Sequence record: MK373794.1
Length of the DNA stretch: 64,000 nucleotides
Reading direction: 5' to 3' (one strand)
Source of the DNA: Escherichia phage vB_EcoS_HdK1
Shown one piece after another: positions 37,430 to 42,612 of this stretch (position 1 is the stretch's first letter; each line of letters begins with the position of its first letter). The notes beneath the pieces are model-generated. The model did not search any database. It saw only the letters and a list, made by a program, of their open reading frames with translations, and was not told the DNA's origin. The translations under genes were made by a program, and so were the position numbers.

Positions 37430-38293
37430 TTATATGCAGCGCGTGATTCGTATATCGTTGAAAGTCGTTCGTATGTGAAACCTGACTCCTCTAAGTAGCG
37501 GTAGAACGTTATTTTGTTCTATTTCTGAAAGATTACAGATATGTTGTCCTTGATAGTGGCGTGACGGTGATTTTTCGGATACCTGCATTGGGCCCCACTT
37601 TGGAGTTTCAATAGCACCAAACGCCGCAGATTGAATCCAGGAGGATGAGTCACAGGAGTACCACGGGTAACGCTCCATAAGCGGACGGGACGTAATACCA
37701 AAACCATGTACTTTAATCTTAGCGCGTCCACTACCGTCTACAAGGTGTTTATCCCATACCCTGTCCAACCATACCTGGAGTTGTTGTGTACTCGCTCCAA
37801 CAAGACCACCAAGAGTGATGTATTCATAATTTCGCACATAATGGTCCAGGTATTCAAAAGGTTCGCCGGCGTGGAAGCATGGTAAAGGTCTTACACCCCT
37901 GGCTTCCATCTCTTCCTGGTTGCGCCACGTTTGAAGTGGATCCCCGATACCATCGAGTACAGAAGCCATAAGCGAACCATCTTCTACACGAATAATATCT
38001 ATGTTTCGTTGGATGTAATCACAGTATTCTTTAACCGATAACGTAACTCCCAAAGTGTAAGCTGAGAACGCCCCGGAGTCGAGGAATATCTTGGCCCCAT
38101 CGGCACGCATGGCATCAACATAGGATTGTTTTCCAACGTAGTGCCAGGATTCAAGAATGTTTGGAATATTCTCGACAACACGTTTTTCTTGTTCGTTGAG
38201 TTTAACATAGCGGTTCATTCCTGGTTTATAGCTGTTCGTATATACGGCAGCCATATAAATCTGAAAGGTATAGTTGATATCTTGTCTGTGCAT
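37430..38293 (-). CDS. dpdA: DpdA-like 7-deazaguanine DNA transglycosylase (TGT superfamily)
   Basis: Signature IFLDSGAFSA typical of DpdA/TGT-like proteins; AGGTGA RBS; adjacent to preQ0-pathway genes. C-terminal region looks atypical. Confidence 0.75.
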   Translation of the reverse strand: MHRQDINYTFQIYMAAVYTNSYKPGMNRYVKLNEQEKRVVENIPNILESWHYVGKQSYVDAMRADGAKIFLDSGAFSAYTLGVTLSVKEYCDYIQRNIDIIRVEDGSLMASVLDGIGDPLQTWRNQEEMEARGVRPLPCFHAGEPFEYLDHYVRNYEYITLGGLVGASTQQLQVWLDRVWDKHLVDGSGRAKIKVHGFGITSRPLMERYPWYSCDSSSWIQSAAFGAIETPKWGPMQVSEKSPSRHYQGQHICNLSEIEQNNVLPLLRGVRFHIRTTFNDIRITRCI

Positions 38294-38362
38294 TGTTCAC
38301 CTAACAAATAAGCGCCCGTAGGCGCTTATTATATTAAAGATAATGTATGATTCGCAAATCAG

Positions 38363-38977
38363 TTACTTTTTACACGCTTCAAGAAATTCCCGACGCCATG
38401 TGTCACCAGTTACGTCCGGTAATACACCATCACCCAATGCAGTACGTCCGCGGAATGCTTTAGTGATGGTTGAGCTTCCGCATACCTGTTTAATACCGCG
38501 CGACTCCATGCACATATGTTTTGCATCGATGTAGACACACACAGCTTTCGGCTCTAAATGGTCACGGATAGCGTCCGCAATTTGATTAGTCAGACGTTCT
38601 TGGACTTGCAAACGTCGAGCAAAAGCATCAACCACACGAGATAACTTACTAAGGCCAACAATTTTTCCATTCGGGACATACCCGACCACCGCATGACCAA
38701 TAATAGGAGCCATATGATGCTCACAATGACTGTAGACAGGGATATCACGGACGATGACCATTTCATCACAGTTTTCCCCACCATCCTCAAACGTTTTGAA
38801 CAGGGATGCAATATCGACAGAATAACCCCCGAACCACGTTTCAAATGCTTTAGCGACGCGCAATGGAGTTTCAACTAGACCTTCACGCAAGTCATCGCCA
38901 CCTTCAATCAACTTTAAAATCTTTTCGATACTGTGCGAAATTTCTGCTCGGTTTGTCATCTTTGTAAATTCATTCAT
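38363..38977 (-). CDS. folE: GTP cyclohydrolase I
   Basis: Motif HCEHHMAPIIGHAVVGYVPNGKIVGLSKLSRVVDAFARRLQVQERLT; ATG at 38977 with AAGGAAA RBS (ORF-track TTG start at 39013). Confidence 0.85.
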   Translation of the reverse strand: MNEFTKMTNRAEISHSIEKILKLIEGGDDLREGLVETPLRVAKAFETWFGGYSVDIASLFKTFEDGGENCDEMVIVRDIPVYSHCEHHMAPIIGHAVVGYVPNGKIVGLSKLSRVVDAFARRLQVQERLTNQIADAIRDHLEPKAVCVYIDAKHMCMESRGIKQVCGSSTITKAFRGRTALGDGVLPDVTGDTWRREFLEACKK

Positions 38978-39003
38978 GGTTTGCAGTTTCCTTGTGTGGT
39001 CAA

Positions 39004-39540
39004 TTATTTGCAATAGTTAACATGGCATTTAGATGTTTCTTCAATGGTACATTCTACCAGTTCAACACCATATTGGTCAAGCAGTTGAGGACCAATTACG
39101 TCAACCATATATGCAGCTAAGTTTTCCGCAGTTGGGTTGAATGGTAAAGCTACCAAAGAATTAAAGAAAGGATCATAATCTTCATCCGTCACTAAATTGT
39201 TCTCGCGCGCAAACTTAGTCGATGCAACAACAATGAGCGAATTAATCAGGCTGTCTTGTTCCCAATGCAGGAACTTATGATCCCAATTATCTTCCAGCCA
39301 CTGGCAGAGCGTAGTTTTAACCACACTAAAGTCGATAACGCGGCCTACATCGTCCAGGGATCCTTCTAAAGCAAATCCACTTACAGACTTAACGTAACCT
39401 TCCGACAATGTTTTCTTTGGTGCGACTTTAAAATGGAACTTATAGTTGTGACCATGAAGATGGCGACATTTGCTTTCGTGACCTACAACACGATGACCAG
39501 CGCAAATCTCGTGTGTGAAACGAATAACAGTGTAACCCAT
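39004..39540 (-). CDS. queD: 6-carboxy-5,6,7,8-tetrahydropterin synthase (QueD-like), with C-terminal extension
   Basis: Zn-binding motif CAGHRVVGHESKCRHLHGHNY; GAGGAA RBS. Confidence 0.8.
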   Translation of the reverse strand: MGYTVIRFTHEICAGHRVVGHESKCRHLHGHNYKFHFKVAPKKTLSEGYVKSVSGFALEGSLDDVGRVIDFSVVKTTLCQWLEDNWDHKFLHWEQDSLINSLIVVASTKFARENNLVTDEDYDPFFNSLVALPFNPTAENLAAYMVDVIGPQLLDQYGVELVECTIEETSKCHVNYCK

Positions 39541-39542
39541 TT

Positions 39543-40958: not shown

Positions 40959-40959
40959 A

Positions 40960-41706
40960 TTATTTACCTTCCTTAACCATTTCAATTTCACGCTCAACGG
41001 ATGCAATAATATCGTTGAGGTCTTCCAGTAAGTCTTTATGACCGCGCTCACCCGCACACAGCACTTTCTTCAGTGCATGTTGCATGGGCCCACTGGTTAC
41101 ATTGAATGCTTTAATTACGTCGTACACGTCAACCCATACATCAATTTCAATTGGGCTACCATTAATGTCATGGGATTCAAAAGTTTTAATTTTGCGCATA
41201 TATTTATTCGGACGTGGAGCTTTAATCTCCTGGATACAACCCTTGTCGATAAACGTTTCTTTAATAAATACTTCAGGATTACCTTCTTTGTCACGATCAA
41301 CGTTAAAGACATTCGTAAGTAGATCGTCCATGATACTGGTTAATTTCTGAGTAGACGTCGTATGCTTCACGGTATTCACTTCCTCTTCTGCTTTCTGACT
41401 TCTTCTGGCAGAAGTATTGATACGCCATTTGTAAAGTGCATTACGTGGAGGCGTTACATGCGTGTTGTAGACCGTCTTTAAGTTCATAAGATCGTGTCCA
41501 TCCATACCTTCAACAAAGACAGTGAGTGCAGGGCAACTATCGTTCAGAACATCCACCATATACCCTTCTCGAATCACAGATGCAAGAGCTGCATGGGACG
41601 CAGCCTGAGAAACTGTGGTTACATAATGTTTTACAAATCCGTCTTCATCAAACAGACACTGGTTCAACACATTTTCTGGAACGATTTCACCGAGTAAACT
41701 GAACAT
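40960..41706 (-). CDS. hypothetical protein embedded in the deazaguanine cluster (248 aa)
   Basis: ORF between queE and gat-queC on the same strand, 1-nt spacing to the gat-queC start; no motif recognised. Confidence 0.5.
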   Translation of the reverse strand: MFSLLGEIVPENVLNQCLFDEDGFVKHYVTTVSQAASHAALASVIREGYMVDVLNDSCPALTVFVEGMDGHDLMNLKTVYNTHVTPPRNALYKWRINTSARRSQKAEEEVNTVKHTTSTQKLTSIMDDLLTNVFNVDRDKEGNPEVFIKETFIDKGCIQEIKAPRPNKYMRKIKTFESHDINGSPIEIDVWVDVYDVIKAFNVTSGPMQHALKKVLCAGERGHKDLLEDLNDIIASVEREIEMVKEGK

Positions 41707-41779
41707 ACTTATTCATAATAACCTACCTTATTAGTTGAACATACCATGTCTTCTAGCGTGTGCGTGAGTATGTATAGCT

Positions 41780-42544
41780 TCACTCTACACCTAAATATTT
41801 GTGGATCTGCAATTGCACGATGTAATTGTGCTTCATTGCATATTTAACGACAGCTTGAGCGTTTGCTTTATTAGCATCGTCGTCCTGTTCATCCATAGGT
41901 TGAAGATAAATCTTACCTTTAAAGTGTACAGGCGGACGTGCGATAAATGGTGTCGCACGGTGATCCAGTGCCTGCAACGGTAAACCATCTTCCTCGTTGA
42001 CGTTTCCGCTTTTCATTACATATTTGAAAGCATCCGCTCGAGCGGAAACGCTAGGGTGAACCTTTGCTGCCTTAGGACTACATACTACCACACAGTTATA
42101 GTTGAGTTCACGCGGGATAGGCATAGTTCCGTTAGTTTCAACCTGTACGCGATAACCTTTCATATCAATAAGGTAATTGATAAAATTAGCAACTTCAGGT
42201 TGACGGAAAGGTTCTCCGCCAGTAATGACAACTAAGTTAGTCTTGGCTTCACCAGTAACACGGACAATCTCTTGCCAGATGTCACCGTGATTCATCTTCT
42301 TACGATTGGACGTGTAGTTTGTATCACATCCTGGGCATTGCAAATTACAACCAGCTAATCGAACAAACACGGCAGGTTGACCACAAAACGGGCCTTCGCC
42401 TTGAATGGTATGAAAAATGGAATGCACGTCAAGAATACCACGTTCACGAACTAACTTCTCAGGTTCCTGAGTATTAATAATTTTCATATGATTTCCAAAT
42501 TTGGCTTGAGCCCAGTGGTGGGCGATAATGGCTTGTGCAAACAT
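41780..42544 (-). CDS. queE: 7-carboxy-7-deazaguanine synthase (radical SAM QueE)
   Basis: Motifs IQGEGPFCGQPAVFVRLAGCNLQCPGCDT and VITGGEP; start uncertain (ATG at 42544 or 42487; ORF-track TTG at 42568). Confidence 0.8.
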   Translation of the reverse strand: MFAQAIIAHHWAQAKFGNHMKIINTQEPEKLVRERGILDVHSIFHTIQGEGPFCGQPAVFVRLAGCNLQCPGCDTNYTSNRKKMNHGDIWQEIVRVTGEAKTNLVVITGGEPFRQPEVANFINYLIDMKGYRVQVETNGTMPIPRELNYNCVVVCSPKAAKVHPSVSARADAFKYVMKSGNVNEEDGLPLQALDHRATPFIARPPVHFKGKIYLQPMDEQDDDANKANAQAVVKYAMKHNYIVQLQIHKYLGVE

Positions 42545-42612
42545 TTGAACCTCGGGGTAAGATAACAAAGGGGCAGTAAATGCCCCTTCTGAGTTTCCGA
42601 AGTATCTACAGA

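Follow-up and report, generated by a model that had tools for sequence, protein, structure and literature searches.

Gene content of the module

The window, a 64,000-nucleotide stretch of DNA, belongs to the Escherichia phage vB_EcoS_HdK1 (Nonagvirus, Queuovirinae; MK373794), whose proteins QBQ80956-62 are exact matches for the window proteins. At positions 37430-42568 it carries a group of genes, all on the (-) strand, related to those of the 7-deazaguanine DNA-modification system of phage 9g (Table 1). The original prediction had seen here a complete module of five co-directional genes (dpdA, folE, queD, a gat-queC fusion, and queE). The shared direction is borne out, on a strand that the prediction did not name, but the ORFs number six. 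The pathway genes are all present, but dpdA is frameshifted in the deposited sequence and its conserved C-terminus is missing. The proposed limits coincide with the outermost positions of the longest ORFs; as gene boundaries they do not hold, since 37430 is a premature stop and 42568 is a TTG inside a hairpin. The record is reported to have a terminal repeat, which accounts for the 3.3-kb repeat at both ends of the window; this was ruled out as part of the module.

Table 1. Features of the HdK1 module and its borders (window coordinates).
Feature	Position	Strand	Description
dpdA	37339..38293	(-)	DpdA1 subfamily DNA guanine transglycosylase (predicted); phrog_887, E=6.5e-87; motif LDSGAF
1-nt insertion	37500..37501		CTACCGC, against CTACGC/CTGCGC in relatives; frameshifts dpdA after residue 265
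folE	38363..38977	(-)	GTP cyclohydrolase I (predicted); 204 aa from ATG 38977
queD	39004..39540	(-)	6-carboxytetrahydropterin synthase (predicted), PTPS fold; 178 aa
gat-queC	39543..40958	(-)	Class-II glutamine amidotransferase-QueC fusion (predicted); 471 aa, Met-Cys start
gp07-like gene	40960..41716	(-)	Conserved protein, function without assignment; between queE and gat-queC
queE	41780..42544	(-)	7-carboxy-7-deazaguanine synthase (predicted), radical SAM; 254 aa from ATG 42544
Terminator-like hairpin	42567..42589	(-)	Directly upstream of queE; 5' boundary of module

The module is similar to that of phage 9g far beyond chance, with 95.8% identity at the DNA level across all 5139 bases and 96.6-99.6% protein identity between the four pathway enzymes (FolE, QueD, Gat-QueC, and QueE) and their 9g orthologues. 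The signature motifs claimed for these enzymes and for DpdA were all found in the translations, and a homology check of each protein, which the original prediction had proposed, placed FolE, QueD, Gat-QueC, and QueE in the expected Pfam families. FolE matches PF01227 (E=4e-62) and TIGR00063 (193.7 bits, cut-off 181.6), contains the motif SHCEHHMAP, and shares 197 of 204 residues with 9g FolE (96.6%); its longest ORF opens at TTG 39013. QueD matches PF01242 (E=1e-20; 74.3 bits, cut-off 22.4) and carries CRHLHGH (CxxxHGH), while its score against the NCBIfam QueD model, 63.7, lies under the cut-off of 89.25. It is identical to 9g QueD at 175 of 177 residues (98.3%), and the gene differs from all relatives by an in-frame 3-nt insertion at 39516.

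The 471-aa ORF opens with MCSIFG, as expected of the N-terminal class-II glutamine amidotransferase that had been predicted to be fused to QueC. Residues 97-217 match PF13537 (GATase_7; 29.2 bits, cut-off 25) and residues 253-458 match PF06508 (E=5e-56), with an SGGMDS PP-loop and a C-x8-CGTCGPC Zn cluster. The protein also matches phrog_10428 (E=3e-288), scores 150.1 against a cut-off of 150.3 for TIGR00364, and is identical to its 9g counterpart at 460 of 471 positions (97.7%). A single-ORF Gat-QueC thus occupies the place where a plain QueC might stand, a membership feature of the dG+ (2'-deoxyarchaeosine) type. QueE matches PF04055 (E=8e-11; 42.7 bits, cut-off 29.5), contains CNLQCPGC (CxxxCxxC) and ITGGEPF, and differs from 9g QueE at a single residue (253/254, 99.6%); its best NCBIfam matches are all QueE models, at about 93 bits, under the equivalog cut-offs. 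The longest queE ORF opens at TTG 42568, while the start equivalent to that of 9g is the ATG at 42544. The hairpin upstream, a consensus match only from a pattern scan, has a 9-bp stem, of which 5 pairs are GC, ahead of a T-rich tail; in the phage HdSG1, a terminator is annotated at the corresponding position.

The sixth ORF, missed in the original prediction, was called as 40960-41706 (248 aa from ATG 41706). From the sequence around the start, its true start is probably the ATG at 41716 (MNKYVQ...), broken by a +1 insertion at 41696. The protein matches phrog_18443 (E=4e-170) and is 93.7% identical to 9g gp07, and homologues at 35-42% identity are likewise encoded between QueE and Gat-QueC. 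Nothing meaningful was found for it in Pfam, NCBIfam, or PADLOC; an AF2 model (pLDDT 62, pTM 0.39) gave meaningless Foldseek matches (E>0.1), and there was no similarity to the small ORF in the equivalent slot of phage CAjan. As a lesser possibility, this protein, whose gene lies in every case between those for QueE and Gat-QueC and is missing from the QueC-only CAjan, may assist the dG+ branch as an accessory factor.

The frameshift in dpdA

The deposited dpdA ORF runs from 38293 to 37430 and encodes 287 aa, of which 22 are aberrant. The first 265 residues are those of 9g DpdA, and the neighbouring frame supplies the other 52 without a mismatch. Beyond the additional base at position 37500 the sequence returns to the frame used in 9g and encodes the C-terminus of 9g DpdA up to a stop at 37339; over the 53 codons that follow the shift, the amino acids agree with 9g at 100%, all nucleotide differences being synonymous. 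Removal of base 37500 yields 317/317 identity to 9g DpdA. In the DNA alignment the insertion is absent from 9g, JenK1, HdSG1, and FritzHoffmann, and in the sister phage HdSG1 dpdA is intact at 954 nt. An intact ORF of about 317 aa with the conserved C-terminus is therefore absent from the deposited sequence, and an alignment of 29 family representatives shows strong conservation of the 52 C-terminal residues that are missing (other matches 302-322 aa). Among the other members listed for the 201-member 90% cluster, lengths are 316-332 aa, and none has the HdK1 form. A genuine insertion at 37500 would probably leave the enzyme inactive. Programmed frameshifting was ruled out here: the site lacks a slippery sequence, and the gene is a single ORF in all relatives.

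DpdA itself is poorly covered by profile libraries. It had no match in Pfam, NCBIfam, or PADLOC, including no Pfam TGT match even at E<=10, and full-length 9g DpdA gave only noise against PDB sequences (E>0.5), phage DpdA being too divergent to match any solved chain by sequence. The Asp residues of LDSGAF and CDSSSW are invariant in the 29 aligned family representatives. An AF2 model from the 29-sequence alignment was of low confidence (mean pLDDT 61, below 50 at the C-terminus); its top PDB match in Foldseek was the archaeosine TGT 1j2b, a weak one (E=5.9e-3, TM 0.41), with generic TIM barrels ranking next. 9g DpdA is the prototype of DpdA1 (PMC10516641).

Insertions across the window

In comparison to JenK1, small insertions split at least 14 other conserved genes of the window between frames, including those for the MCP, TMP, tail fibre, adaptor, primase, Sak4, and Rz. 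HdK1 is a plaque-forming phage that was sequenced at 228x coverage. Since such a set of frameshifts is incompatible with a viable phage, they are best read as consensus errors, and the dpdA frameshift is most likely also a consensus error in the deposited assembly and not biology. The +1 in dpdA, the +1 at the start of the gp07-like gene, and the +3 in queD are probably all assembly errors.

The alternative, that HdK1 is a natural DpdA-defective Nonagvirus in which the base is made but not inserted and the DNA stays unmodified, is very unlikely. It would take at face value the 287 aa without a conserved C-terminus that the deposit encodes, and CAjan delta-dpdA mutants are indeed viable (PMC6884629). 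Of the 28 window-specific insertions besides that in dpdA, moreover, 27 lie in a GA or GGC context, which the dpdA insertion does not. However, single-base insertions are untrustworthy in a deposit that also frameshifts capsid, tape-measure, primase, and other essential genes, the downstream dpdA frame is perfectly kept, and no other listed cluster member shows such a form. Restriction resistance of HdK1 DNA has also been reported: the DNA was stated to resist some restriction enzymes, as 'data not shown' (Korf et al., 2019; PMC6563267).

Counting all window-specific small insertions, 27 of 29 touch GA or GGC, which are known as the targets of CAjan DpdA (PMC7544227). The insertion errors of the HdK1 assembly could thus be a footprint of DNA modification, a tentative reading to which we give slightly less than even chances. 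Taken by itself, GA fell short of significance for the 1-nt insertions (13/20, p=0.1), only GA and GGC together being significant. The dpdA insertion, as one of only two of the 29 that touch neither motif, lacks the signature that the other presumed errors show, a point against reading it as an artefact. The supplements of Korf et al. (2019) do not state the sequencing platform for HdK1, and the literature examined, through 2023, reports no target motif for 9g-like phages.

Proposed function

The HdK1 module is very likely a dG+ DNA-modification module of the 9g-like type, with enzyme functions transferred from 9g because protein identity is 97-100%. FolE would convert GTP to dihydroneopterin triphosphate, from which QueD would form 6-carboxytetrahydropterin and the radical-SAM enzyme QueE 7-carboxy-7-deazaguanine. 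Gat-QueC would carry out amide and nitrile chemistry and then use glutamine ammonia to form the amidine (G+), with no release of free preQ0. Once the DNA is replicated, the TGT-like DpdA1 would swap guanines of the duplex for the 7-deazaguanine base, probably at GA and GGC, so that about a quarter of G would be modified and many restriction enzymes blocked. GA and GGC together hold 30.4% of the G in this genome, from which dG+ would be expected at roughly 25-30% of G. Work on 9g underlies this scheme. The 9g folE, queD, and queE genes complement E. coli mutants, including queE in delta-queE, while 9g gat-queC fails to restore Q in delta-queC, and 9g dpdA with gat-queC placed dG+ at 9-18% of plasmid G (PMC6884629). 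In the 9g virion, about 25% of G is dG+ (PMC10516641). Near-identity to 9g and this literature uphold the predicted 9g-type module with an archaeosine-type base and an anti-restriction role.

Two other readings have to be weighed against dG+ in DNA. A module serving tRNA modification (queuosine or archaeosine) is suggested by GenBank/RefSeq and PHROGs names such as 'queuosine tRNA-ribosyltransferase' and 'queuosine biosynthesis', and the preQ0 pathway is common to tRNA modification, but 9g dpdA fails to complement E. coli delta-tgt, and the 9g gat-queC result above concerned Q in tRNA (PMC6884629). Since the 9g pair puts dG+ into DNA and repaired HdK1 DpdA is identical to 9g DpdA, a tRNA role is extremely improbable. 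Scarcely more credible is that the HdK1 DNA product is dPreQ0 or another intermediate. DpdA on its own does insert a little preQ0 (790 per 10^6 nt), and limiting Gat-QueC leads to some dPreQ0, but with the 9g enzyme dG+ is overwhelmingly dominant (PMC6884629), and HdK1 Gat-QueC is intact in its Met-Cys start, PP-loop, and Zn cluster and 97.7% identical to that of 9g.

Relationship to known systems

The closest system is the dG+ system of 9g (Thiaville et al., 2016; Hutinet et al., 2019), from the same genus and with the same gene order, gp07 included; the deposited HdK1 sequence departs from it by the +1, +1, and +3 insertions in dpdA, the gp07-like gene, and queD. The HdK1 cluster was itself already described, as HdK1rev_00055-00060 (Korf et al., 2019; PMC6563267). 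It is a known system, dissected by experiment in 9g, and nothing new as a discovery; the caution of the original prediction that novelty was unproven was apt, the earlier paper covering the same cluster in the same phage. [quoted passage not shown] Unlike HdK1, it has a plain QueC (240 aa), a YhhQ-like transporter, and no gp07 homologue, and its product is dPreQ0, not dG+; at the DNA level only folE-queD align with the HdK1 module, at about 75% identity.

The bacterial Dpd system (DpdA/DpdB/DpdC, Salmonella Montevideo) likewise uses a TGT-like transglycosylase, which inserts preQ0 into DNA by double displacement with two Asp residues (PMC10164549). Unlike the phage enzyme, bacterial DpdA needs the DpdB ATPase and modifies <0.1% of G, with further conversion to dADG via DpdC; neither DpdB nor DpdC is present in the HdK1 module. 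Archaeal Gat-QueC is the same class-II amidotransferase-QueC fusion with the G+ amidine as product (PMC6884629, PMC10516641), but it works with arcTGT in a tRNA pathway, whereas the predicted HdK1 partner is a DNA transglycosylase.

Implications

Record MK373794 should be used with care, as it apparently holds many frameshifting consensus errors, and dpdA looks truncated in it and is annotated 'hypothetical protein'. The Pfam, NCBIfam, and PADLOC profile libraries still miss phage DpdA1 entirely. If the insertions are a footprint of modification, 7-deazaguanine bases would systematically introduce insertions into the consensus, with PacBio RSII data presumably the source, and archived long reads of modified phages could reveal target motifs without new experiments. 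The Nonagvirus DpdA1 would then install dG+ at the same GA and GGC motifs as the preQ0 enzyme of CAjan.

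Gene content and family assignments

The HdK1 module for 7-deazaguanine DNA modification consists of six consecutive minus-strand ORFs (37339–42568), directly followed past dpdA by the genes for the sliding clamp and the DNA polymerase. The original prediction had described a complete five-gene module for 2'-deoxyarchaeosine (dG+) at 37430–42568. All five named genes are present, and every motif quoted for the enzymes was found in the translations, but the interval also holds a sixth, gp07-like ORF, and the dpdA ORF is not intact in the deposited sequence. Pfam and NCBIfam profile searches upheld four of the five assignments above curated thresholds: FolE (PF01227, E=4e-62, with TIGR00063 also over its cut-off), QueD (PF01242), QueE (PF04055), and Gat-QueC (PF06508 plus GATase_7). 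DpdA, the TGT-like DNA transglycosylase, had zero matches in Pfam, NCBIfam, and PADLOC and was matched by PHROGs only (phrog_887, E=6.5e-87).

Coordinates of the module genes (listed as transcribed, queE first), neighboring genes, gp07-like occurrences, and example insertion sites
Feature	Position	Strand	Remarks
queE	42544–41780	−	254 aa; longest ORF from TTG 42568, within terminator-like hairpin 42589–42567
gp07-like	41716/41706–40960	−	about 250 aa
gat-queC	40958–39543	−	471 aa; Met-Cys start
queD	39540–39004	−	178 aa
folE	38977–38363	−	204 aa
dpdA	38293–37430 (open frame)	−	287 aa; homologous sequence on to 37339
9g gp09 homologue	42613–43438	−	274 aa in 9g; +1 at 42778; 233-aa fragment in ORF list
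9g gp10 homologue	43535–44257	−	240 aa, "similar to ATPases"; +2 at 44147; 190-aa fragment
gp07-like, L009	6001–6681		
gp07-like, L010	1681–2325		
Insertion sites (examples)	13521, 14097, 20281, 21443, 28196, 42778, 44147, 55703–56901		

The gp07-like ORF has no match in Pfam, NCBIfam, or PADLOC, and structure prediction was uninformative. Its family is small (63 clusters); in alignment the N-terminal half is variable and an 80-residue C-terminal domain, found in further PHROG families too, is very conserved. Homologues at 35–42% identity keep the slot between QueE and a Gat-QueC of 468–469 aa, a position that is constant across the Gat-QueC-type Queuovirinae compared. In contrast, Escherichia phage CAjan, which carries a plain QueC, has no gp07 homologue at the equivalent place.

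Relationship to the 9g system

The gene content and order of the module match those of the experimentally studied phage 9g, and the sequences are nearly identical, in agreement with the predicted system type. DNA identity over the whole module is 95.8% to 9g and 96.0% to JenK1, and protein identity to 9g is 99.6% for QueE, 98.3% for QueD, 97.7% for Gat-QueC, 96.6% for FolE, and 93.7% for gp07. Of the sequence features expected of a 9g-type dG+ system, the HdK1 deposit lacks just an intact dpdA ORF, a defect attributed to the assembly. By sequence, the module is a member of this known system, its putative function being carried over from 9g.

The 9g folE, queD, and queE genes complement the corresponding E. 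coli mutants, while a tgt defect is not complemented by 9g dpdA, and a queC deletion strain does not regain queuosine when given 9g gat-queC (PMC6884629). Together, 9g dpdA and gat-queC converted 9–18% of plasmid G to dG+, and dpdA alone inserted mere traces of preQ0 (PMC6884629); gp07 is thus dispensable for the chemistry, as these two genes are enough to produce dG+ in E. coli. About 25% of G in 9g virions is dG+, and the 9g transglycosylase defines subfamily DpdA1 (PMC10516641). Because the HdK1 and 9g proteins are near-identical, the 9g mechanism would transfer to HdK1. FolE, QueD, and QueE would convert GTP to 7-carboxy-7-deazaguanine, which Gat-QueC, taking nitrogen from glutamine and releasing no free preQ0, would turn into the amidine base G+. 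DpdA1 would exchange the base in DNA post-replicatively, either before or after amidation (PMC6884629).

The module finding is correct but already known. The HdK1 DNA polymerase, DpdA, QueD, Gat-QueC, and gp07 proteins are exact matches within QBQ80956-62 (64,059-bp record), and Korf et al. (2019) placed HdK1 in Nonagvirus, listed the same cluster (HdK1rev_00055 to 00060), compared it to those of 9g and JenK1, and reported, as "data not shown", resistance of HdK1 DNA to some restriction enzymes (PMC6563267). Their Table S4 gives HdK1 a ~3.4 kb terminal repeat and 228x coverage (PMC6563267). That repeat corresponds to the exact 3308-bp repeat at the window ends (1–3308 = 60693–64000), which is lacking from the 9g and JenK1 records and, since the first 3308 bases recur exactly, leaves a unique genome of 60,692 bp. 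In an INPHARED-derived phage collection no record exceeds ~97% identity to the window, so MK373794 seems to be absent there; its sister HdSG1 (MK373795) is present.

A frameshift in dpdA and insertions across the deposit

In 9g, JenK1, HdSG1, and FritzHoffmann, dpdA spans 954 nt (317 aa), with 8 nt separating its end from the clamp gene, whereas the deposited HdK1 ORF stops at 37430. Alignment places one additional base at 37500, where the minus strand reads CTACCGC against CTACGC or CTGCGC in the relatives. Past residue 265 the deposited frame encodes 22 unrelated residues and then a stop; the alternative frame encodes 52 further residues identical to 9g, with three synonymous changes in the DNA. 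Deleting base 37500 yields a DpdA identical to that of 9g at 317/317 residues. At a cut-off of E<=0.001 the family counts 2709 members, and the remaining matches listed are 302–322 aa long. Because the lost C-terminal segment (GFTYERLSTVYESRAAYNLW...) ranks with the most conserved stretches of the family in 29 aligned representatives, a genuinely truncated DpdA would probably be inactive.

Set against JenK1, HdSG1, and 9g over its full length, the window has 29 small insertions of its own, which span 13521–60237 and lie in contexts otherwise 90–100% identical. According to tblastn of JenK1 proteins, at least 14 conserved genes are divided between reading frames, including those for the primase, which has seven insertions, the major capsid protein, the tape measure, the tail fibre, the head-tail adaptor, Sak4, and Rz. 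In or near the module, dpdA, the gp07 start (41696), and the gp09 and gp10 homologues (gp37-like and gp38-like) between queE and the helicase are affected. The last two appear as ORF fragments because insertions split them, and their family matches are limited to PHROGs lacking assigned function.

Every gene split in HdK1 is intact in HdSG1, from the same study. The frameshifts in these genes cannot all be real, because HdK1 forms plaques and was imaged; the split essential genes and intact HdSG1 copies thus show that the deposit holds systematic insertion-type consensus errors. The simplest account of the dpdA insertion is that it belongs to these errors. That it is instead a real mutation is very improbable, given a viable phage whose other conserved genes are likewise frameshifted in the deposit; the slight chance we allow it reflects the GA/GGC signature, which the dpdA site and just one other of the 29 lack. 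An in-frame 3-nt insertion in queD (39516–39518), in a GA context, changes IR-SHE in 9g, JenK1, and HdSG1 to IRFTHE, and is probably another consensus error and not a true variant.

Sequence context of the insertions

GA or GGC on one strand is touched by 27 of the 29 insertions (for example TGAT to TGGAT, GGGA to GGGGA, GGC to GGGC, and GGC to GGCC), compared with 56.7% of random single-base duplications in the HdK1 genome (binomial p=1.9e-5); 27 was reached in 0 of 3000 simulated duplication sets. For the twenty 1-nt events, 18 did so against 12.5 expected from run-length-matched controls (p=0.005). GA plus GGC explains the insertion sites best of 320 pairs of a dinucleotide and a trinucleotide (p=1.7e-5), while GA by itself is not significant. 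CAjan DpdA installs preQ0 at GA and GGC (PMC7544227), and by 2023 CAjan and iggy were the only phages with a determined DpdA motif (PMC10484667). These two motifs account for 30.4% of G in the HdK1 genome, near the 25% dG+ measured in 9g. PacBio RSII was used for some phages of the published study (PMC6563267). As 228x coverage should erase random errors, it is plausible that the modification induced a systematic one.

The result serves as a quality warning on record MK373794. The GA/GGC error footprint is a useful by-product of the analysis and a suggestive lead: judged from their sequence context, the insertions may mark sites where dG+ disturbed the sequencing chemistry.
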